A DNA stretch of 63,191 nucleotides, filler included. It is 5 parts of 5 records of this genome, joined end to end, with 100 filler letters (N's around TTAATTAATTAA, not from the genome) between each part and the next. Parts side by side here need not be neighbours in the genome. Positions count along the whole stretch, not along the records: positions 41,929 to 51,123 come from SRR2962707_2563; 4 more parts are not named here. One strand, 5' to 3'. A model generated the notes under the pieces. The model was not told the DNA's origin, made no database searches, and saw nothing but the letters and a program-made list of their open reading frames with translations. This document shows positions 7,335 through 51,223 of this stretch, one piece after another. The translations under genes and the position numbers were made by a program. Position 1 is the stretch's first letter. Each line of letters starts with the position of its first letter.

Positions 7335-7434
7335 NNNNNNNNNNNNNNNNNNNNNNNNNNNNNNNNNNNNNNNNNNNNTTAATTAATTAANNNNNNNNNN
7401 NNNNNNNNNNNNNNNNNNNNNNNNNNNNNNNNNN
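7335..7434. other. Artificial contig spacer
   Basis: N-run + TTAATTAATTAA + N-run, 100 nt. Confidence 0.99.
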
Positions 7435-16589: not shown

Positions 16590-16689
16590 NNNNNNNNNNN
16601 NNNNNNNNNNNNNNNNNNNNNNNNNNNNNNNNNTTAATTAATTAANNNNNNNNNNNNNNNNNNNNNNNNNNNNNNNNNNNNNNNNNNNN
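16590..16689. other. Artificial contig spacer
   Basis: N-run + TTAATTAATTAA + N-run. Confidence 0.99.
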
Positions 16690-41828: not shown

Positions 41829-41928
41829 NNNNNNNNNNNNNNNNNNNNNNNNNNNNNNNNNNNNNNNNNNNNTTAATTAATTAANNNNNNNNNNNNNNNN
41901 NNNNNNNNNNNNNNNNNNNNNNNNNNNN
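41829..41928. other. Artificial contig spacer
   Basis: N-run + TTAATTAATTAA + N-run. Confidence 0.99.
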
Positions 41929-42078
41929 GAACAGTGGGGCAAGCTGACCGATGACGATCTCGACGTGATCTCGGGAAAGCGTGAGCAGCTCGAAGGAAAG
42001 ATCCAGGAGCGCTATGGCAAGTCGAAAGACGAAGCCAAGCAAGAGGTCGATACCTGGTTCGACCGGAACGGCTGGTAA
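41929..42078 (+). CDS. CsbD/YjbJ family stress protein (5' truncated; absent from ORF track)
   Basis: Translates EQWGKLTDDDLDVISGKREQLEGKIQERYGKSKDEAKQEVDTW... Confidence 0.9.
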   Translation, partial: EQWGKLTDDDLDVISGKREQLEGKIQERYGKSKDEAKQEVDTWFDRNGW

Positions 42079-42101
42079 GCCTTCCCCATGCCATATAAAG
42101 C

Positions 42102-42132
42102 AAAGGCGGCACCCGCGGGTGCCGCTTTTTTT
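42102..42132. terminator. Rho-independent terminator between convergent csbD and GST
   Basis: GCGGCACCC-GC-GGGTGCCGC followed by T7. Confidence 0.85.
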
Positions 42133-42134
42133 GG

Positions 42135-42842
42135 TTACTTAGCGCGTTGATTAAAAAGCACTTTCTGGGCTTCCTTGTCGTCGGCGAGGTTCATCTGCTG
42201 ATCCTCGGGCAGTTTGACGGCGAGGCCACGCTCCACCGCAGGGCGGGCCTTGAGGCGGTCCTGCCAGGCGGCGACGTTGGGGAATTCCTTGAGGTCCATG
42301 CCCTGCTTTTCCCAGCCCAAAGACCAGCTCAGCGAGGCGATGTCGGCGATGGAGTACTCGCCGGCAATGTAATCCTGACCTTCAAGCTGCTTGTTGAGCA
42401 CGCCATAGAGACGGTGCGTCTCGTTTACATAGCGATCGATCGCATATTGAATTTTTTCAGGCGCATATTGCTTGAAATGATGGTTCTGACCGAGCATCGG
42501 GCCGAAACCGCCCATCTGCCAAAACAACCATTCGTCCACTTCTACCCTGGTGCGCGGGTCACGGGGATAAAATCTGTCGAACTTTTCGGCGAGATATTTG
42601 AGGATCGCGGCGGATTCGAACACTGAAATGGGCGCTCCGCCGGGGCCTTCGGGATCGACAATGGCCGGGATCTTGTTGTTTGGCGAAATGGCCAGAAACT
42701 CGGGCTTGAACTGATCGCCCTTGCCGATGTGGATGGCGTGAACGGTGTAAGGAACGCCCAATTCCTCGAGCATTATCGAGACCTTATGCCCGTTGGGGGT
42801 GGGGAAATAGTAAAGCTCGATGGGCGCTGTCTGCTCGGGCAT
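42135..42842 (-). CDS. GST family disulfide-bond oxidoreductase (YfcG/Nu class)
   Basis: TPNGHKV, SPNNKIPAI, FESAAIL, WLFWQMGGFGPMLGQNHHF. Confidence 0.92.
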   Translation of the reverse strand: MPEQTAPIELYYFPTPNGHKVSIMLEELGVPYTVHAIHIGKGDQFKPEFLAISPNNKIPAIVDPEGPGGAPISVFESAAILKYLAEKFDRFYPRDPRTRVEVDEWLFWQMGGFGPMLGQNHHFKQYAPEKIQYAIDRYVNETHRLYGVLNKQLEGQDYIAGEYSIADIASLSWSLGWEKQGMDLKEFPNVAAWQDRLKARPAVERGLAVKLPEDQQMNLADDKEAQKVLFNQRAK

Positions 42843-42922
42843 GGGAAATCCGTTTATTTGACTTTGGGTGGGGTGAACGGCACTTCATCGTAGTTCGCCG
42901 ATGAACGCAAGGCCCGGCATGG

Positions 42923-42952
42923 AAAAACCGGGACGCTGAGGGGCGCCCCGGT
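42923..42952 (-). terminator. Rho-independent terminator of the glyoxalase-superfamily gene
   Basis: Minus strand ACCGGGGCGC-CCCTCA-GCGTCCCGGT followed by T4. Confidence 0.75.
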
Positions 42953-42957
42953 CTGTT

Positions 42958-43404
42958 TCAGGCTCCTGCGAGAACCATGTGCGGCTGGCCGTCGCTGGTC
43001 CGCGAGAGTGAGACACCGTCACGATTGACGGTGGCATCGACCCTCTGGCGGAAGGCGGAAAAGCTATCGAAAGCAACGACATCGACCGGCTCATCGAACT
43101 GGATGGTCAGGCGGAACATCTCCCCTGCCCCCAGCGCCTGGACGCCGATGATGGTGCCGGTGAAGGGCTGCTTGAGATAGGTTCCGGCGACCTGCTGGCT
43201 GACGGCATAGGCCGGGCCGCGAGTGACGGGAAGCACGCCGGAGGCCGTATTCCAGTCCCGGAAACCGTGAAATCTCGCAACCATTTCAAGGGCTTGCGAT
43301 TGGGTTATGGATCGACCGGCGTCGAGCTGGGCGGCACGATACTGGCGCGCCTCGGTCTTGAGGTCGGTCGTGGTCAGATGGGATGCAGGTTTACGCATCG
43401 TCAT
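42958..43404 (-). CDS. 'Glyoxalase superfamily' (Glyoxalase_8-like) small protein with a C-terminal beta-rich domain
   Basis: LKTEARQYRAA...ITQSQALEMVARFHGFRDWNTA; GGAG RBS before ATG 43404/43398, so the 43533 start in the ORF track is probably too long. Confidence 0.75.
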   Translation of the reverse strand: MTMRKPASHLTTTDLKTEARQYRAAQLDAGRSITQSQALEMVARFHGFRDWNTASGVLPVTRGPAYAVSQQVAGTYLKQPFTGTIIGVQALGAGEMFRLTIQFDEPVDVVAFDSFSAFRQRVDATVNRDGVSLSRTSDGQPHMVLAGA

Positions 43405-43570
43405 AGTCTCCACGGCGGAATTTTCGTCTTGGGAGCCCGCATTGCCAAGCACCGCCAATGGGTTGGGACGATGTTTGCTGGTTCGCGCGGCCCGGAAACC
43501 CGGGTTGGCGTGGAAGACTTCACCGTAAGGCATGTGCCCTTGCGGACGGCAGGCGCTTCAACCAAGCGCT
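43405..43570 (-). ncRNA. Candidate structured 5' leader RNA (about 170 nt)
   Basis: At least four hairpins between a TTGACA-17-TATCTC promoter and the RBS (see findings). Confidence 0.5.
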
Positions 43571-43599
43571 GAGATAAGTACGCTGCGACGCTTTGTCAA
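43571..43599 (-). promoter_or_regulatory. sigma70-type promoter
   Basis: TTGACA (43599-43594), 17 nt, TATCTC. Confidence 0.65.
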
Positions 43600-43673
43600 T
43601 ATGGGCAACAATGGCGGCAAAAACTATGGACTTGTGCGTTCGGGAGCCACAGATTGCAAAATATTGTGGGTAT

Positions 43674-44453
43674 GTGGGATTCCTGAAATTGACGTTTGTA
43701 TTGCTGTTCGCCGCCGGCTTGCTCGGCGGGATGATAAATTCGCTCGCCGGTGGCGGCTCTTTTGTGATTTTTCCGGCGCTTCTGTTTGCCGGGGTGCCTC
43801 CGGTGCTCGCCAATGCGTCGAACACTTATGCATGCCTGCCCGGCTATGTGACCGGGGCGATCGGCTACTGGAAGCATATCGCGCCGCACAAGGGGCGGCT
43901 GGCCCTATATTGCGCGCTGGGGCTGGTGGGGGGATATCTGGGCGCCGAGGCGCTGATGCGGATTTCGGACGAAATGTTCGCCGGGATCATCCCCTGGCTG
44001 ATGGCGTTCGCCGTGGCGATCTATATTTTCGGGCAGCGGATCAACCGGTTCTTTGCGGCGCGCTCGGTGGGCTCGCAACGCGCGGCGCGGGCCGGCGCGG
44101 CCGGGCTGTCGGCGCTGCTGCTGGCCATCAGCTTTTATGGCGGGTTCTTTAACGCGGGGCTGGGGATCGTGCTTCTGGCGTGGCTGGCGCTGGCCGGGTT
44201 CGAGGACGTTCATGCGATGAACGGGCTGAAGCTGCTGATCTCGTCGGTGATCTCGGTGGTGGCCGTTATGCGGTTCGCCGCGACCGGATCGATCGCCTGG
44301 GTCGAAGGCAGCGTGGCGCTGGCGGGGGCGATGGTCGGCGGGTTCGCGGCGGCGTATTTTTCCCATCTCGTGCCGGCCAAGGTGATCCGGGGGTTTGTGA
44401 TTGTGTATGGCGTGGGGCTGACGGGGTATTTTTTCTGGGGGGTTTATGGGTAG
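43674..44453 (+). CDS. Sulfite exporter TauE/SafE family membrane protein
   Basis: GGMINSLAGGGSF, PPVLANASNT, FYGGFFNAGLGI, MNGLK; start approximate. Confidence 0.9.
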   Translation: MGFLKLTFVLLFAAGLLGGMINSLAGGGSFVIFPALLFAGVPPVLANASNTYACLPGYVTGAIGYWKHIAPHKGRLALYCALGLVGGYLGAEALMRISDEMFAGIIPWLMAFAVAIYIFGQRINRFFAARSVGSQRAARAGAAGLSALLLAISFYGGFFNAGLGIVLLAWLALAGFEDVHAMNGLKLLISSVISVVAVMRFAATGSIAWVEGSVALAGAMVGGFAAAYFSHLVPAKVIRGFVIVYGVGLTGYFFWGVYG

Positions 44454-44520
44454 GGATCGTTGACGGTGTCGGGCCTTAGAGGGTGTTGCGGTAATCGCGT
44501 CAGGAGCGTCAGGATAGTAC

Positions 44521-45129
44521 CTAGTTTATGCGTCGGTTCACGAGATGTCTCACCTCGGTTTTTGGGTCGGCCATTATCTGCCGATCGCCACGATACTTCT
44601 CACACGCACGCCGCAGTCGACGCTTCTGCTCAACTCGATCGTTTTCTCCGATGTCAGGAAATATCCTTCGATACGGATGCTTATCCACCTCCGGCGCCAG
44701 CTTCTCTTCATTGATAGCGAAATACCAAACTTGAATCACCTGCGCCTCTATGGGCAGCACCCCCGTCAGCGCCTGGTAATCATGCCATCCTTCCCATATC
44801 ACGGTGTCGTTTTGCACATCGCTGAAGCTCCCTAAAAGGTCGCCGTCCTCACGCACGGTCTTTTTGTCCTGCTCGTAGAAATGTTTCATCGCGTTCCAAT
44901 ACTGGTTTCGCAAACGAACTACTTTTCCAAGCTTCATGTCTGGCTGGAGCTTCAGCACCAGTGCAGACAAAACCTCGACATTTTTGACCTGGCCAACTCC
45001 ATCCAAAAGTTCGCACGCACCGCAAGCCAGAGCATGAACTGAGATCGGATCCCTATCTTTGAGGAATAGCTCTGTCGCCGTACCAAGTTGAGCGCGCGCT
45101 ATGTCGATCTTGAGCTGATGGATGTCCAT
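44521..45129 (-). CDS. Hypothetical protein (lower GC than flanks)
   Basis: 202-aa ORF with GAGGAA RBS; N-terminal K-x3-A-x2-QL...D-x2-SVHAL pattern; no family recognised with certainty. Confidence 0.7.
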   Translation of the reverse strand: MDIHQLKIDIARAQLGTATELFLKDRDPISVHALACGACELLDGVGQVKNVEVLSALVLKLQPDMKLGKVVRLRNQYWNAMKHFYEQDKKTVREDGDLLGSFSDVQNDTVIWEGWHDYQALTGVLPIEAQVIQVWYFAINEEKLAPEVDKHPYRRIFPDIGENDRVEQKRRLRRACEKYRGDRQIMADPKTEVRHLVNRRIN

Positions 45130-45309
45130 GTCGTTTCCTCTTTCGGCCGGGGAAGGCTAACCCACTTGCAGCGCAAGTTTTTCGAATAAGGTTGGCCACT
45201 TTCGGATTTCATAACCGAATTGCGACGTGGGTTGGCAACGGAAAAGACATTTCCCCCACTCGCCTCATTACGGCCCACGCCCGTATGCCGAGCGCCGTTT
45301 TGCCTCTGT

Positions 45310-45522
45310 GGGTCCCCGGGTCGGCCCCGGGATGACGGTGGGGGGCTGCCGGGGGTTGAGTTCCTGCGGTTCTCGGGGGCTCCCGATTGCAAGACACAGG
45401 GAGCGGGAGGATTTTGAAGTGTTGGCTGGCGCTACATCTTCGGTGAACGCAGACACTTAGCGGGTCCCCGGGTCAAGCCCGAGGACGACGAAGGATTTGA
45501 AGGGTCGAGCCCGAGGACGACG
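45310..45522 (+). repeat. Three direct copies of an alphaproteobacterial REP/RPE-like palindromic half-unit
   Basis: GGGTCCCCGGGTCGGCCCCGGGATGACG (45310), GGGTCCCCGGGTCAAGCCCGAGGACGACG (45462), GGGTCGAGCCCGAGGACGACG (45502). Confidence 0.7.
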
Positions 45523-45576
45523 AGGGAATTGAAAGGTGGCGTTGAGCGGGAAATGTGGTTCGGGGTTGTGGGCCCC

Positions 45577-46644
45577 CTACTCCTCCGGCGGCGCCAGCAG
45601 CATTTCATCCAGCACTTCGGCGGCGCACTGGTTGGTGAGGTCGCTCAGCGCGATGTCCTGTTCGGGGGTGCGCTGGGGGGATTCGAGCATGGGCCAGAGG
45701 TTGTCGGCTTCGATGCTGTTTAGCGTGCAGGCGCAGTAGGCGGTGCAGTAGGCGGCGTCGGGGGCGGATTGGATGCAGCTCGACTGGCAGCTTGAGAGGA
45801 AGTTTTCGGCGCGGCGGGTTTCGCTGATGCCGGTGAGGGACGCGATGCCCATCAGGATGCCGATGAGAATGGGCTGGTGCAGGACGTAGATGACGAGGCT
45901 CCAGCGGCCCAGTTTTGCCAGAACGCGGGAGGGCGCTGAGGTGCCTTTGAACCGGGCAATGCGGGTGGCGACGCTGGCGCCCTCTGAGGGGTCGATGTCT
46001 GGTCGGGCGGTCGCACCGGGAAGGTCTGCGGCTTTTTCCGGTCGCACGCTAGTGGCAAGCGCCCAGCGGGTGGCGGCGATGCCGAGGAGGGCGACGCCGA
46101 ACCAGGGGAAGATGGGGACCAGATCTTCAGTGGGGGGCGGCGCGTCCCAAAGGCCGATCCATGACCAGAGTTTTTCGCCAAACAGCGGGTTTTGGATGAA
46201 CAGTTGCAGGCCGATGAGGATGATGGCCAGCCCGATGATGAGGATGAGCGGCGCTGTGAGGAAGGCCAGCCCCAAAAGGGAAAAGAGGGCTATGGCGTGC
46301 AGGACGCCGAAATAAACAAAGGTGCCGGGATTGAACGCGTAGGTGCCCGCAGAGATGAGGAGCGCGGCGCCAAGGATCATCGCAAAGCGGCGCCAGAAGG
46401 GGCGCCAGCGGATGGCTTCGCCATGGCCGAGGACGAGGGACACGCCGGTCAAAAAGATGAAGGTGCCGACGATGGACTTCTGGAAGATCACCCAGGGGAG
46501 AGACTGGGTGGGGTCGAAATCGACAAAGCCGAGGAAGGCCAGATCCCATGAGAAATGATAGATAATCATCGCGACGATGGCGACGCCGCGCGCGACGTCG
46601 ATGGCGGCGATGCGCGGGCGGGATGCGGGGGCGATGGACGTCAT
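45577..46644 (-). CDS. DUF1624 / heparan-alpha-glucosaminide N-acetyltransferase-like membrane protein
   Basis: RIAAIDVARGVAI, YHFSWDL, YFGVLHAI, DLVPIFPW, GRWSLVIYVLHQP; Cys-rich C-terminal extension. Confidence 0.88.
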   Translation of the reverse strand: MTSIAPASRPRIAAIDVARGVAIVAMIIYHFSWDLAFLGFVDFDPTQSLPWVIFQKSIVGTFIFLTGVSLVLGHGEAIRWRPFWRRFAMILGAALLISAGTYAFNPGTFVYFGVLHAIALFSLLGLAFLTAPLILIIGLAIILIGLQLFIQNPLFGEKLWSWIGLWDAPPPTEDLVPIFPWFGVALLGIAATRWALATSVRPEKAADLPGATARPDIDPSEGASVATRIARFKGTSAPSRVLAKLGRWSLVIYVLHQPILIGILMGIASLTGISETRRAENFLSSCQSSCIQSAPDAAYCTAYCACTLNSIEADNLWPMLESPQRTPEQDIALSDLTNQCAAEVLDEMLLAPPEE

Positions 46645-48740
46645 GCAGCGGAGGCCCGGACCCAGACGGCGGCATCGTGGAAGGCAGCGCCGCCGAAGGG
46701 TTTGACCGGATCGGAGCCGATCAGGGTATTGATGCCCCTGCCCTTTCGATGCGCCTTGTGCGGGTGCAGCCCCTCGGCGACGACGACGCCGGTGCGCAAC
46801 CCGTTGAACAGGCGCAAGGTCAGCTCCACGCTGCCGCGGTGATTGCCGATGGTGACGGGGGCGCCGTCTTGCAGCGCCAGCCGGGCGGCATCTTCGGGGT
46901 GCATGAGCAAGGACGGGGTTCCTTCGCGCTTCTGGCTGCCGGGTGTTTCCCCGAAGGTGGAATTGAGGAAGGTGCGGGCCGGCGAGGTGGTGAGCCGGAA
47001 CGGGACAGTTTCGGAGGTCGGCTCGTTCCAGTTCATGAAATCGACCATGGCGGGCATTTCGGACGGGTCACAGACCCATTCGACGCCGCGCTTGATGCGG
47101 GTGGCTTCCCAATCGGGCTTGAAGCGGAACTTGCCGTCGGGCCAGGCAAAGCCATCGGCGTAGCGGGATTTGTCGTCCGGCAAAGCGCGGTCCACGAAGC
47201 CGGAGGCGGCTTCGATTTCGTCGAGATCGCCATAGCCGGAGCGCGAGAAGGTTTCGGCGACCATCTCCCTGTCGGTTTTTTGGGTGACGGCATCGGGCGC
47301 CCCTACCCGTTTGGCGATCTCGTTGATGACGAAATGGTTGGGCATCGCCTCGCCGGGGGCATCGACGATTTTCGGGCCGTAGAGGACGCGGGTGTGGCCG
47401 CCGCGGGTGTAATAATCGTTGTGTTCGACAAACATGGTGGCGGGCAAAACGATATCGGCCATCTGGGCGGTTTCGGTCATGAACTGCTCGTGGACGACGG
47501 TGAAGAGGTCCTCGCGCTCGAACCCCTGACGGGTCAGGGAGTGATCGGGGGTGACGACCATGGGGTTGGTGTTCTGGATCAGGAGCGCCTTGACCGGAGC
47601 ACCGCCCTTTAAGGCTTCGGGATCGCCGGTGAGGATGGGGCCGATGCGGCACATGTCGAGCTCGCGCACGCGGGATTTTTTGAGCGCGGCGCCGGTGATC
47701 TGGGATTTATCGAGCCCCCAGGTGCCCGAGTTTGAATGGAAGGCGCCGCCGCCGCGATATTTCCACGCGCCCAACATCGTGGGGATCGAGAGCGCAGCGT
47801 GCATGTTGAGCGCGCCATTGCGCTGGCGGGAAAAGCCATAGCCGAGGCGGAAATAGGCGCGCGGGTTTTCGCCAACCAGATGGGCGAAGGCTTCGATTTC
47901 GGCGGGGTCGAGGCCGGTGATCTCGGCGGCCCATTGCGGGGTTTTTGCCGCAAGATGTGATTCAAGGGATGAATCGAAGTCCGTGTGGGAGCTGAGAAAA
48001 TCGCGGTCGGCGAGGTTGTCGCGCAAAAGCACGTGCATGATGGCGAGCGCCAGCGCGCCATCGGTGCCAGGGCGGATGAGCAGCGCCATATCGGCCTGCT
48101 CCATGGTGGCGGTGCGGTAGATATCGATGACGACGAGCTTTGCGCCGCGCTCCTTGCGGGCGCGGATGGCGTGGGTCATGACGTTGATCTGGGTGTTGAC
48201 CGGATTGGTGCCCCAGATGATTACGCAGTCGCTCTCGGCCATCTGCTCGGGATTGGGGCCGGTGAGAAGCCCGGTGCCGGCGATATAGCCGGTCCACGAG
48301 ATCATCACGCAGATTGTGTCGTATTGCTCGGAGTAGCCCTTGGCGTTGCGCAGGCGGTTTATGCCGTCGCGGTGAACATGGCCCATGGTGCCGGCGTAGT
48401 AGTAGGGCCAGATGGATTCGGGGCCGTGCTCGGCTTCGATTTGCAGGAAGCGGGTGCCGATTTCATCGAGCGCTTCGTCCCAGGAGATTCGCTGGAACTG
48501 TCCCGAGCCCTTGGGGCCGGTGCGGCGGAGGGGATAGAGGACCCTGTCGGGGTGGTTGGCCCGTTCGGCATAGCGGGCGACCTTCTCGCAGATGATGCCG
48601 GCCGTATAGGGGTCGTCCTTGGCGCCGCGCACGCGGCCGATGATGCCGGTCTCCAGCACTTCGATATCGAGGGCGCAGGTCGAGGGGCAATCGTGGGGGC
48701 AGACGGTGCGGGCGGTGCGCAGGACGAGTGGCTTGGTCAT
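46641..48740 (-). CDS. Molybdopterin-dependent oxidoreductase (DMSO reductase family) with N-terminal [4Fe-4S] motif
   Basis: CPHDCPSTC...C, RISWDEAL, WGTNP, RPGTDGAL, ADIVLPAT, C-terminal MHPEDA domain. Confidence 0.92.
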   Translation of the reverse strand: MTKPLVLRTARTVCPHDCPSTCALDIEVLETGIIGRVRGAKDDPYTAGIICEKVARYAERANHPDRVLYPLRRTGPKGSGQFQRISWDEALDEIGTRFLQIEAEHGPESIWPYYYAGTMGHVHRDGINRLRNAKGYSEQYDTICVMISWTGYIAGTGLLTGPNPEQMAESDCVIIWGTNPVNTQINVMTHAIRARKERGAKLVVIDIYRTATMEQADMALLIRPGTDGALALAIMHVLLRDNLADRDFLSSHTDFDSSLESHLAAKTPQWAAEITGLDPAEIEAFAHLVGENPRAYFRLGYGFSRQRNGALNMHAALSIPTMLGAWKYRGGGAFHSNSGTWGLDKSQITGAALKKSRVRELDMCRIGPILTGDPEALKGGAPVKALLIQNTNPMVVTPDHSLTRQGFEREDLFTVVHEQFMTETAQMADIVLPATMFVEHNDYYTRGGHTRVLYGPKIVDAPGEAMPNHFVINEIAKRVGAPDAVTQKTDREMVAETFSRSGYGDLDEIEAASGFVDRALPDDKSRYADGFAWPDGKFRFKPDWEATRIKRGVEWVCDPSEMPAMVDFMNWNEPTSETVPFRLTTSPARTFLNSTFGETPGSQKREGTPSLLMHPEDAARLALQDGAPVTIGNHRGSVELTLRLFNGLRTGVVVAEGLHPHKAHRKGRGINTLIGSDPVKPFGGAAFHDAAVWVRASAA

Positions 48741-48811
48741 TCAGATCAGGTTCATTGTGGAGATGGCCATAGTAGGGCGGATCGGGGCTGGTGTCAGCCG
48801 CTTGCGGCCAA

Positions 48812-48834
48812 GTTGCAACACCTTGTTTTGCAAC
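48812..48834. promoter_or_regulatory. Palindromic operator candidate between divergent genes
   Basis: GTTGCAA-N9-TTGCAAC. Confidence 0.4.
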
Positions 48835-48929
48835 GGCACTTGTCCCGGAATAATCACATTCGGGCGTCACCATCGCCCGGAGAGCGGGGGCTCACTTGTC
48901 TATAGACCCAATAAGGAGGGTAACCCCCC

Positions 48930-49685
48930 GTGACACCAAAAATCTTCGCTCTTTCCGCCATGGCCGCAGCACTTGCGGTTTCGGGTTGCACCAGCTCGGG
49001 TTCGGGGCTTCCGCCCTCGCCGCTCAGCTATTCGGCCGTCGGGCTGAACGCCGGTGGCACGGCGGTCGGCAATGGTGCGTTTTCGGCCAATCCGAGCACG
49101 ATCACCGTCGCTGTGGATGGCCGGAACTATACTGTCGGCAATGGCGCGGCGACGCCCGGCCTGCCGGGTGGACTGACGGGGTACACCTATTCCAGCGGTG
49201 GTAATACGGCGGCCTATGTCGGGGGCAGCCATGCGGCGACGGCGCTGACCAGCCCGGCGGGATCGAACGCCGTTTATGCGATTGTCGACGGGCGGGAAAC
49301 GACCGGCAGCCAGATGCAGAACCTGCCCATGCAGGCGGCCAATTACGATGGCGTGTGGGGCATATCGAGCTCGTCGGGCCAGCAGGCGGGCGGGACGTTC
49401 CAGGCGGGGGCGAATTTTGATTCGCGCTCGGTGGGGTTCGAGCTTTACGACCAGTCCGGGCTTGTGGGCGGCGGCAATGGGCGGATCATCGGGACCGGGT
49501 TCACCAGCACGCTCGATACGCGCGATGCGGTCGATCAGGGGCCCAACAACGTCCGGCTCAATTCCAACAACACGATCGATGGCCAGTTCTATGGGCCGCG
49601 GGCCGATGAAATGGCCGGGCTGGTGCGTGGCAATACGACTGACGGCAATGGCGCGACGGCCGGTTATCTGATCGGCACGCAGTAA
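48930..49685 (+). CDS. Surface lipoprotein with TbpB-like C-terminal beta-barrel (Slam cargo)
   Basis: AAGGAGG RBS, lipobox VSGC, Gly/Ser linker, 'ANYDGVW', 'ANFDSRSV', 'DGQFYGPRADEMAG'. Confidence 0.78.
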   Translation: MTPKIFALSAMAAALAVSGCTSSGSGLPPSPLSYSAVGLNAGGTAVGNGAFSANPSTITVAVDGRNYTVGNGAATPGLPGGLTGYTYSSGGNTAAYVGGSHAATALTSPAGSNAVYAIVDGRETTGSQMQNLPMQAANYDGVWGISSSSGQQAGGTFQAGANFDSRSVGFELYDQSGLVGGGNGRIIGTGFTSTLDTRDAVDQGPNNVRLNSNNTIDGQFYGPRADEMAGLVRGNTTDGNGATAGYLIGTQ

Positions 49686-49691
49686 TCTTAG

Positions 49692-49714
49692 GAGGCGGCG
49701 TGCGGCGCCGCCTC
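49692..49714 (+). other. Intergenic GC hairpin without U-tract (possible mRNA stabiliser)
   Basis: GAGGCGGCG-TGCGG-CGCCGCCTC. Confidence 0.5.
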
Positions 49715-49742
49715 AACCCCTTGTAATGCGTATGGGTCTCTG

Positions 49743-51050
49743 ATGGCTTTCTCCAAAATCCTTGCGGCGGGCTTTCTGGCCGGAGCCGTCTTTTTCGGTA
49801 CGGCGACGGGCGTGTTGGCGCAGAGTGTTTCGCTGGCCTCGCTCGATGAGGCCATCGGCGCGGGCGACTGGGTGCGGGCCGAGCAGATCGCGATCCAACT
49901 CGATGCGGAGGCCGGGCAAGGCGACATCATGGCAGCCTATGCAGCTTCGGTGCGGCACGCGCAGTCGGGGCAGTGCGGCGATGCGGTGGTGCTTGCCGAT
50001 CTGGTGATCGGGGCTGTGCCGTTTTTCGTGCCGCCCTATCTCGTGGCGCAGCGGTGTTATTCGGAGCTTGGGCAATCGGAGTTGGCAGCGGCGCGGCTGG
50101 CATCGCTGCAGGCGATCTTGCCCGATGGGCCGGAGCGCGACGTGGTTTCCCAGATGCTCCAGAACGAGCAATCGCGCGGCAAGCCAGTGTTTGGCGGCTA
50201 TTTCACTGTGGCGCCCTCGACCAATGTGAACCGGCAGACCGGGGAAGACACCATCGATGGCGGGGTGTGGGGGCCGGGAGAGATCCCCGAGGAGGCGCGC
50301 GGGCAGCGGGGCGTGCTGTTCAGCCTTGGCGGATCGGTGGCCGTGGAACTGGCGCGGAGCGAGGCGGCGAGCCTTTCGGGCGTGCTGCGCACCGACATAC
50401 GGTATTCGACGGCAGACAAGGTGTTCGAGCCAAGCTTTACGGCTGAACTGCCGGTGACGTTTTCCGTGGGCGAGGCGGCGCGGGCCGTGGTTGCGCCCTA
50501 TGTGACGCTGGGGCTGGAAGAGGACACGCTGGAGCGGACGGAGGTGGGCGTGCGCTCCAGCCTATCGGTGCCGCTAGATGCTTCCCAGCGGCTGGCGTTC
50601 GATCTGAAGCTGGCGGCGGTGGAGCGGCATATCGATCCGGGGCGGTCGGGGATGCTGGCCGATGGGACTGCATCTTATTCGACGTCGCTGGCGCCCAACA
50701 CCAACCTCACGACGACGGCGCGGGCGGTTTACAACCACACCGATGACGAGACCCTGCGCACGCTGGTGGCGACGTTGCGGGCGCGGGTGGATACGCTGTT
50801 CGACAACGGATTGCTGCTTGGGGTCGAAGGGACCATAGGACAGCGCTGGCACTGGCGCCCTGCCCCGTTCCAGCTCGAAGACCAGGTTGACCGATTTGCG
50901 ACGGGGCGGATCGAGGCGAGCCATCGCGACATCACGATCGGGCCGCTGATGCCCTCGATCTATTATGAGTACACCAACAGCTGGTCGGACAATGTGTTTT
51001 ACACATATGACAGCCACGATATCGGGCTGACGCTCAGGGCGAGTTTTTAG
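49743..51050 (+). CDS. Surface lipoprotein assembly modifier (Slam / DUF560, type XI secretion translocon)
   Basis: Signal peptide, TPR-like helical N-domain, 'APSTNVN', amphipathic beta strands, 'SDNVFYTYDSH...RASF' with terminal Phe. Confidence 0.78.
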   Translation: MAFSKILAAGFLAGAVFFGTATGVLAQSVSLASLDEAIGAGDWVRAEQIAIQLDAEAGQGDIMAAYAASVRHAQSGQCGDAVVLADLVIGAVPFFVPPYLVAQRCYSELGQSELAAARLASLQAILPDGPERDVVSQMLQNEQSRGKPVFGGYFTVAPSTNVNRQTGEDTIDGGVWGPGEIPEEARGQRGVLFSLGGSVAVELARSEAASLSGVLRTDIRYSTADKVFEPSFTAELPVTFSVGEAARAVVAPYVTLGLEEDTLERTEVGVRSSLSVPLDASQRLAFDLKLAAVERHIDPGRSGMLADGTASYSTSLAPNTNLTTTARAVYNHTDDETLRTLVATLRARVDTLFDNGLLLGVEGTIGQRWHWRPAPFQLEDQVDRFATGRIEASHRDITIGPLMPSIYYEYTNSWSDNVFYTYDSHDIGLTLRASF

Positions 51051-51100
51051 GGCGTTTGGCGGGGCAAGCTTGGGTGTCGATGTTCGGCGCTGGGGGTACT

Positions 51101-51123
51101 GGATCCCGGATCAGGTCCGGGAT
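51101..51123 (+). repeat. REP/RPE-like palindromic unit at the contig end
   Basis: GGATCCCGGATCAGGTCCGGGAT, similar to the units at 45310-45522. Confidence 0.6.
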
Positions 51124-51223
51124 NNNNNNNNNNNNNNNNNNNNNNNNNNNNNNNNNNNNNNNNNNNNTTAATTAATTAANNNNNNNNNNNNNNNNNNNNN
51201 NNNNNNNNNNNNNNNNNNNNNNN
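51124..51223. other. Artificial contig spacer
   Basis: N-run + TTAATTAATTAA + N-run. Confidence 0.99.

Follow-up and report, generated by a model that had tools for sequence, protein, structure and literature searches.

Does the sequence between a promoter and a gene for a 'glyoxalase superfamily' protein have a function of its own? The question is raised by positions 42923 to 43599 of the DNA analysed here, a stretch of 63,191 nucleotides composed of five joined parts and referred to as the window. Read 5′ to 3′ on the minus strand, the locus consists of a promoter, a leader of ~165 nt, a Shine-Dalgarno sequence (SD), an open-reading frame (ORF) and an intrinsic terminator, and every one of these elements, as listed in a first-pass annotation made from the letters alone, was found in place. 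That annotation also took the leader to be an unannotated cis-regulatory RNA, a view borne out by strong conservation and covariation upstream of homologous genes; the leader is almost certainly a real, conserved cis-regulatory RNA structure. What had been missed at that stage was that the RNA goes with one part of the encoded protein, its N-terminal helical domain (N-dom), and not with the protein as a whole, and that it also forms the leader of MatE operons.

A pseudoknotted RNA that reaches the start codon

A scan of one genome per species gave 80 loci encoding relatives of the protein, and a covariance model, R1, was built from 58 non-redundant leaders. Full-length matches to R1, on the strand of the gene, were obtained for the window and for 77 of the 80 loci (E-values of 1e-8 to 3e-26); as for the three exceptions, no sequence is available upstream of L034, L080 is truncated at the end of its contig with its 3′ half still visible, and L051 gave no match. 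The 77 model-aligned sequences, on which the helix counts are based, describe a fold of stems P1, P1a, P2, P4 and P5 together with a pseudoknot, in which the loop of P4 pairs with the strand after P1a. In the window the leader is made up of the following parts.

43566-43396, minus strand: leader RNA, reaching the start codon
43556..43559 with 43513..43516, minus strand: P1, GAAG/CUUC; 93.2% paired, 4/4 pairs covary
43548..43553, minus strand: J1 core, CC.GCC; C, C, G, C and C invariant in 58 diverse sequences
43548..43550 with 43522..43524, minus strand: P1a, GCC/GGU; 100% paired (77/77), 0/3 pairs covary
43542..43547 with 43435..43440, minus strand: pseudoknot, GUCCGC/GCGGGC; 99.6% paired, 5/6 pairs covary
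43527..43540 (43540-43536 with 43531-43527), minus strand: P2, variable hairpin AGGGC-ACAU-GCCUU; 67.9% paired, 3/3 modelled pairs covary
43518..43524, minus strand: junction GGUGAAG; G, G, U, A and A invariant in 58 sequences
43491..43504, minus strand: P3, hairpin CCCGG-GUUU-CCGGG; lineage-variable, its sequence changed in relatives, outside the model and the counts
43467..43473, minus strand: linker CAUCGUC; invariant in 12 sequences
43452..43456 with 43414..43418, minus strand: P5, GGCGG/CCGCC; 54.4% paired, 4/5 pairs covary, moderate support
43428..43449, minus strand: P4, hairpin of CUUGG (43449-43445), loop CAAUGCGGGCUC (43444-43433) and CCAAG (43432-43428)
43396..43411, minus strand: SD and start codon; SD GGAGA at 43411-43407, ATG at 43398-43396

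One pair of the pseudoknot is UA in 37, CG in 36 and UG in 4 of the 77 sequences, another is CG in 46 and UA in 29, and at least nine compensatory haplotypes of the helix occur. Because the pseudoknot lies outside the structure held in the model, this count was not fitted to the model; on a plain MAFFT alignment the helix was 99.7% paired, and RNAalifold, given 25 Sulfitobacter-type leaders, proposed it unaided. A long-range closure by a UGCCG/UGGCA pair had been suggested earlier, and the suggestion was right in spirit, the helix that covaries being the adjoining GUCCGC/GCGGGC. P1 occurs as 35 distinct helix sequences, and 43 distinct stems close the same P4 loop, which contains the 3′ strand of the pseudoknot (43440-43435); P4 itself was 63.9% paired with covariation at 3/5 pairs, and its GG.AA.G and CC are invariant in the 58 sequences. 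The pairs of P1a never vary, so that P1a is uninformative and its pairing unproven, and its invariant G:U fits the strand of the gene only. Sulfitobacter-type leaders retain only a few nucleotides of P2. CCGCC, the 3′ strand of P5, lies directly 5′ of the SD; a best-of search for P5 helices of at least 6 bp succeeded in 74 of 87 leaders compared to 59% of shuffles, which is barely above the shuffles, so that the support for P5 comes from the fixed-column counts. A shift by one alignment column visibly accounts for some of the unpaired cells in P2, P4 and P5.

Over the whole structure, 80.1% of cells were paired compared to 70.4% in shuffles, and the covariation score was 0.319 compared to 0.164, values that none of 500 shuffles reached in either case, while sliding the partners by 1-3 columns lowered pairing to 36-54%. 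Single-sequence folding energy carried no signal (z +0.26; 115 of 200 shuffles folded as well), so that the structural case rests on comparison. The positions invariant across the 58 diverse sequences are CC.GCC, GGU.AA, GG.AA.G and CC, ~18 nucleotides that are gathered by the pseudoknot. In L185, L186 and L188, leaders of genes that join N-dom to Glyoxalase_7, CC.GCC has become CC.GCA together with a change of GGUGAA to GGCGAA, which converts the otherwise invariant G:U pair to G:C. As for the four hairpins drawn by eye in the first-pass annotation, the second and third live on in spirit as P2 and P3; the first (GCGCUU/AAGCGC) overlaps the 5′ strand of P1 and the fourth (CAUCG../..CGGUG) the 5′ strand of P5, and both are alternatives to the conserved fold.

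The 3′ end of the leader was fixed by comparison as well. Twelve Pelagibacterium-type sequences all have GGAGA and GACGATG, an ATG at 43404 is unconserved (AAG, CTG or GAG in relatives), and the frame that opens at 43533 is disrupted in relatives by an in-frame TGA in L004 and by indels that are not multiples of 3. The protein thus starts at 43398 and has 146 aa, and the leader is non-coding. The ORF, earlier given as 146-148 aa, is real with its start now settled, and the upstream start at 43533, which had been named as an alternative, is not conserved.

The motif precedes genes for N-dom proteins and MatE-like pumps

Genome samples were searched for the motif with strict filters, under which weak variants are lost. 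It was found in 10 of 150 further genomes of the class to which a Pelagibacterium genome belongs, in 44 of 150 Rhodobacterales genomes (the order of a Sulfitobacter genome; 52 matches, including two in the centre genome) and in 29 of 150 genomes from the order of the Pelagibacterium genome, which is the order of the window itself (34 matches). In 73 of 89 instances, an ATG lies 5 nt inside the 3′ end of the model, and 85 of the 89 have one between -12 and +5. Nine of the ten new matches in the class sample precede Glyoxalase_8 genes and the tenth a gene that fuses N-dom to a Glyoxalase_7 VOC domain. Among the 52 Rhodobacterales matches, the first gene encodes N-dom in 27 and a MatE-like pump in 24, with one left unassigned; the MatE identity was confirmed with Pfam for 2 of the 24 and judged from length and a common N-terminal sequence for the others. 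Directly behind 17 of these 24 pump genes stands an N-dom gene. Seven have no N-dom gene alongside, and six of these are in genomes with a second motif copy before an N-dom gene (G293 left out); one stand-alone MatE pump is followed by ribosomal protein genes. For the order of the window, 29 of the 34 matches were examined: 24 precede N-dom genes, 4 precede MatE-like genes, and the weakest (26.4 bits), ahead of an unrelated gene, is probably a false match. No credible match before any third gene family was found in these three samples.

The association also held when the protein was the starting point. Of 17 matches to PF20066 (Pfam Glyoxalase_8) in the class sample, 16 include N-dom (profile positions ~5-60), and the motif lies directly upstream of all 16 genes, 12 times with strict filters and 4 times only with the filters off (19.9-29.6 bits). 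The remaining homologue, L157, matches PF20066 at positions 58-133 only and lacks N-dom, and no motif was found there with the filters off (best 5.4 bits). In a phylum sample of 400 genomes, the motif was present at E ≤ 0.01 in 22 of 24 loci tested; L181 gave a weak match at the right place with all core features visible by eye, and in L171, which has no motif, the 5′ end of the gene and the leader have been replaced by other sequence. The regulon consists of genes that begin with N-dom, plus MatE pumps.

Some loci have unusual arrangements. The N-dom gene begins 90-125 nt past the end of the motif, not inside it, in L093, L123, L229 and L232, and in L093 a 41-codon ORF (L093:1651-1773) stands between the two. 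At L171:1400-1500, unrelated sequence, which may encode a recombinase on the opposite strand, abuts the truncated Glyoxalase_8 gene. A good motif copy in L179/L210 (G228:C1) is followed by an N-dom gene that ends after 99 aa and looks disrupted, with the rest of the Glyoxalase_8 profile ~2.5 kb away and containing an in-frame TGA.

All named records with the motif or N-dom are Alphaproteobacteria, or metagenome-assembled genomes named just 'Pseudomonadota bacterium'; the genera include Sulfitobacter, Roseibium, Devosia, Pelagibacterium, Mesorhizobium, Bradyrhizobium and Methylobacterium. PF20066 was found in 0 of 14 control genomes, Caulobacter vibrioides among them.

N-dom and its partner domains

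The coding sequence (CDS) in the window matches the whole Glyoxalase_8 profile (E 3.7e-54; 183.1 bits compared to a cut-off of 23.7). A Pfam scan of the protein returned PF20066 only and no PF00903, and NCBIfam gave no family for it. In the AlphaFold2 model (predicted local distance difference test, pLDDT, 87.6), helices at residues 10-26, 33-43 and 49-55 are followed by a five-strand barrel, for which the best fold matches are of the Tudor/SH3/KOW type at Z ≤ 6.0, a likeness that may reflect just a common arrangement. The top match is the C-terminal Tudor domain of UvrD/PcrA (Z 6.0, root mean square deviation 2.3 Å, 54 residues aligned). No VOC chain was among the 50 fold matches listed, Foldseek against the PDB returned nothing at E ≤ 0.001, a PDB sequence profile search gave one match only (E 0.72), and the ESM Atlas gave no usable match. 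The earlier remark that no glyoxalase features are visible fits this predicted fold of three helices and a Tudor/SH3-like barrel.

N-dom covers ~55 aa, folds into three predicted helices, corresponds to the first third of the Glyoxalase_8 profile and was modelled alone at a pLDDT of 89.4. K14, E38, W49 and N50 are invariant across architectures and A17, R21, L37, G45 and A54 nearly so, with the conserved K14 and R21 both on helix 1. The domain is fused to at least five different C-terminal parts, all with the motif upstream.

N-dom with a Tudor-like barrel: Glyoxalase_8 proper
N-dom with a Glyoxalase_7 VOC domain: weak bleomycin-binding likeness, below the cut-off (34 bits compared to 140)
N-dom with a ClpX-type zinc finger: L184, L161 (Bradyrhizobium-type)
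N-dom with a Lon substrate-binding domain, with or without Clp_N: L187, L158 (Tardiphaga-type)
N-dom with two or more unassigned C-terminal parts

These fusions were placed in Bradyrhizobium, Tardiphaga, Mesorhizobium, Neorhizobium, Methylobacterium and Xanthobacteraceae. The parts found in L184, L161, L187 and L158 are substrate- or adaptor-binding parts of AAA+ proteases with no ATPase, and the leader RNA is upstream of each.

Relatives of the protein bear the names PF20066 or, at NCBI, 'glyoxalase superfamily protein', whereas the C-terminal domain predicted for the window is the five-strand Tudor/SH3-like barrel. Since only N-dom is common to the true VOC-domain (Glyoxalase_7) proteins, the name Glyoxalase_8 probably comes from that N-terminal domain, and it is misleading for the C-terminal barrel.

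Predicted closure of the ribosome-binding site

In 79 of 87 leaders, the 3′ strand of P5 stops 12-25 nt short of the AUG. For 51 of the 87, the SD finds its likeliest partner in unconstrained ensembles in the linker that joins P1 to P5, and duplexes of the last 25 nt of the linker with the region from SD to AUG had a median z of -1.84, with 60% below -1.5 (86 leaders, against shuffled linkers). In the window, CAUCGUC is complementary to GACGAUG at 43402-43396, start codon included, and with G:U pairs to GGCGGUG at 43456-43450; RNAalifold pairs it with GACGAUG. With the linker directly 5′ of P5 and the SD directly 3′, a helix between the linker and the ribosome-binding site (RBS), here P6, would extend the conserved arm outward, so that the initiation site should be closed once the RNA is fully folded. 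As the RBS would lie inside a helix that extends the conserved fold, control is likely exerted on translation.

No general opener of a closed RBS was found among the alternatives examined. Hairpin 1 of the first-pass annotation and a similar RNAalifold hairpin in Sulfitobacter compete with P1 and J1 and never vary. An anti-SD sequence in the 3′ strand of P1 was considered and rejected, its duplex reaching -14.7 kcal/mol in the window and not being general (own-versus-cross duplexes, permutation p = 0.38).

What may act on the leader

The leader is likely a pseudoknotted cis-regulatory RNA that gates translation initiation. From the sequence comparisons, our tentative choice of effector is the N-dom protein itself, binding its own leader. 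The linker would pair with the SD/AUG region of the folded RNA and close the RBS, free N-dom protein would bind the pseudoknot core of its own leader and, in trans, those of the MatE leaders, and this binding would stabilise the closed form and repress translation. Once its C-terminal domain is occupied by a drug or client, the protein would be titrated away and translation would resume, by which a constant free pool of a stoichiometric binder would be kept and the pump turned on when needed. The partner domains are all binding modules and not enzymes, so that feedback on the free pool would make biological sense. An autogenous site may also be read from the tie of the motif to a 55-aa domain whatever follows it and from the homologue with the C-terminal domain only, which has no motif; the lack of any gene family other than MatE in the regulon and an RBS predicted to be closed by default, which suits repression by stabilising a fold, point in the same direction. 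Binding by N-dom would give the N-terminal domain of the 'glyoxalase superfamily protein' a function and would explain its many fusions to binding modules. A wider reading, which we regard as speculative and rather unlikely, is that leader and N-dom form a portable feedback cassette, in which a new RNA-binding domain clamps the pseudoknot and lets go when its partner domain is occupied. Such a cassette would do at the level of RNA what TetR and other repressors released by drugs do, and evolution would have reused it for five or more kinds of stoichiometric binder, protease-adaptor-like domains among them.

Several results weigh against closure by the fold and binding by N-dom. P6 is statistically supported but has no covariation support, for which reason closure of the RBS counts as inferred, and constraining the aptamer left the predicted accessibility of the SD unchanged (0.256 compared to 0.251; Wilcoxon p = 0.2). 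Hairpin 4, in which the linker pairs with the 5′ strand of P5, was rejected as a general opener of the RBS, being lineage-specific with a median z of -0.48. The fold search with N-dom was uninformative, its best match a DUF1244 structure at Z 5.0, and the seven MatE genes have no N-dom gene beside them. In addition, a large core in which ~18 invariant nucleotides surround a pseudoknot is characteristic of metabolite aptamers, and MatE pumps together with bleomycin-binding-like proteins are a typical regulon of a toxin-response riboswitch.

Almost as probable as control by N-dom, and suggested by these last points, is a riboswitch of a new class that recognises a small molecule: the core of the leader would bind a toxic or stress compound and so change access to the RBS, the regulon would handle the compound or its damage, and the function of N-dom would be linked to this compound as well. 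A fold that is complex and conserved and whose pseudoknot brings invariant positions of junctions and loops together, a covarying structured domain in a sense-strand 5′ untranslated region (UTR) ending at the start codon, and a wide occurrence (10/150, 44/150 and 29/150 genomes) would all be expected of such an element, as would the MatE-like pumps at 24 of 52 Rhodobacterales matches, 7 of them with no adjacent N-dom gene, and Glyoxalase_7 partners that resemble bleomycin-binding proteins, even if below the cut-off (34 bits compared to 140). It would be a class controlling efflux pumps and antibiotic-binding-like proteins, pointing to an unknown natural toxin. However, all regulated genes except MatE share one 55-aa domain and the homologue with only the C-terminal domain lacks the motif, which is the pattern of autogenous control; the regulon has no enzyme or importer family, and no ligand can be named. 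Since the folded form appears to close the RBS, the riboswitch would be an OFF switch, which is odd logic for an efflux pump. It is improbable that the structured RNA acts with no effector at all, in mRNA stability or processing, in standby binding or tuning of translation, or as a sensor of temperature, ions or pH, and is inherited with the first coding segment as a portable module. The RBS is predicted to be mostly paired in every modelled state (mean unpaired probability 0.25), no conserved switch partner was found, and leader and N-dom travel together through domain shuffling, all as such an element would have it; yet ~18 invariant nucleotides and a precise pseudoknot across three orders exceed the usual needs of stability or thermosensing, and the motif has also moved before MatE genes that lack N-dom.

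Mimicry of a cellular RNA bound by N-dom, with the 16S decoding-site region as the candidate, or aminoglycoside sensing through an A-site-like loop, seems very unlikely. A small asymmetric loop of the leader sets the invariant GGUGAA(G) opposite CC.GCC, and the 3′ region of 16S in a Pelagibacterium genome (L189) contains GGGGTGAAGTCG with CCGTCACACC upstream, which we take to be the decoding site and which shares GGUGAAG. But local alignment of leader and 16S was at chance (score 19, reached by 209 of 300 shuffles), the model scored 0.6 bits on the 16S 3′ region, and the base opposite the two A's is an invariant C. That the conservation belongs instead to a DNA operator or promoter of divergent genes, or to the coding sequence of a longer ORF from 43533, is the least probable account of all and is already contradicted by the covariation counts. 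The leader does lie in a divergent intergenic spacer beside a TauE gene and has an in-frame ATG at 43533, but compensatory changes keep the pairs, the invariant and variable G:U pairs fit one strand only, the frame is broken in relatives, and the motif, which turns up in genomic contexts that are unrelated, stands ahead of a start codon every time.

Comparison with known regulatory RNAs

The autogenous leaders of the ribosomal protein S15 and of the alpha operon (S4) form pseudoknots at the RBS. Like them, the RNA described here is a pseudoknotted 5′ leader that reaches the RBS ahead of the gene or operon of one protein, and its folded form would likewise close or trap the initiation site; unlike them, it serves at least five architectures and a pump, N-dom is not ribosomal and has no known RNA target, and no mimicry of rRNA was detected in this leader. 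ANTAR and the CAT domain of BglG/LicT are small RNA-binding domains combined with variable sensors, and they act on terminator or antiterminator hairpins. N-dom, with ~55 aa, varied partners and a candidate target RNA in the leaders of the regulated genes, resembles this design, whereas the putative target is a complex pseudoknot at the RBS and the N-dom fold search links it to neither family.

SAM-II and preQ1-II are H-type pseudoknot translational riboswitches of Proteobacteria. The leader shares with these a pseudoknot with conserved loop nucleotides next to the SD; at 130-190 nt it is much longer than they are, their Rfam models do not match it, and it precedes no biosynthetic genes. The guanidine-IV (mepA motif) riboswitch is reportedly linked to MATE pumps. 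Both RNAs are structured 5′ UTR elements ahead of MATE-family efflux genes, and guanidine-IV (preprint 10.1101/2020.10.21.349134) answers a toxic small molecule. The leader gave no Rfam match at the thresholds used here. The two differ in taxon and in fold, which here has a long-range pseudoknot and five stems, and this motif ends at the start codon and not at a terminator.

An RNA family missing from Rfam 15

The first-pass annotation could place the leader in no Rfam family, and searches of the window and of related loci agreed with this. The Rfam 15 covariance models gave 0 matches at the gathering threshold in the whole window, none with E ≤ 10 in the 401 bases of 43300-43700, which surround the leader, and none in 10 motif-bearing loci of other lineages. 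The names 'Glyoxalase_8' and 'PF20066' were not found in the searched literature, where the leader RNA is also undescribed, although supplementary tables of surveys may list it without a name. In the accessible parts of Brewer 2021 (PMC8632094) and Weinberg 2017 (PMC5737381), the Rhodobacterales motifs are other RNAs (cco, cysS, rpoB). The accessible text of 10.64898/2026.10.21.760802 mentions a cluster with no name that lies ahead of genes for glyoxalase, monooxygenase and NmrA, and that may or may not be the leader motif. As far as searchable catalogues and literature go, the RNA family is previously uncatalogued; the motif occurs in roughly one-fifth to one-third of the sampled species of two large alphaproteobacterial orders, and yet it is missing from Rfam 15.

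Transcription signals and neighbouring genes

The remaining elements of the locus are listed below.

43571..43599, minus strand: promoter; -35 TTGACA at 43599-43594, 17-nt spacer, -10 TATCTC at 43576-43571
42958..43398, minus strand: CDS of 146 aa, Pfam Glyoxalase_8; N-dom at residues ~8-57, C-terminal barrel at 61-146
42923..42952, minus strand: intrinsic terminator; 12-bp hairpin plus U5, -27.2 kcal/mol, z -2.33

In the 12 Pelagibacterium-type sequences, TTGAC and C.TAT.T of the promoter are invariant; a generic sigma-70 scan did not report the TTGACA-17-TATCTC promoter. Its position would put the start of transcription near 43565-43563. Assembled contigs from public RNA-library runs of relatives, ~93-94% identical, span CDS and leader, and a single polyA-library contig spans 43094-43524; such contigs cannot reveal start or strand, and they are compatible with co-transcription of leader and CDS.

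The divergent upstream neighbour is a TauE-family gene, and the leader region is the intergenic spacer between the two. The part of the window at 41929-51123, which holds the locus, shares 98.5% identity with a contig of 'Rhizobiales bacterium UBA1912' and 86-88% with Pelagibacterium genomes. A Glyoxalase_8 protein was found in 0 of 61 genomes comprising G001, the genome nearest to the whole stretch, and 60 relatives, because G001 seems to be kin to other parts of the stretch. The match to the near-identical public contig L001 ends exactly at 41929, a part boundary. The parts meet at four pairs of 44-N runs (7335-7434, 16590-16689, 41829-41928 and 51124-51223), with 12 bases between the two runs of a pair. 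Positions 44456-45574, which contain a 202-aa ORF (44521-45129, minus strand) with no Pfam match, are missing from the otherwise collinear L001 and L002 and have a lower G+C of ~0.52, and may be a small insertion. The terminator is followed immediately by a gene for a glutathione S-transferase (42135-42842), which is syntenic in L001-L003.

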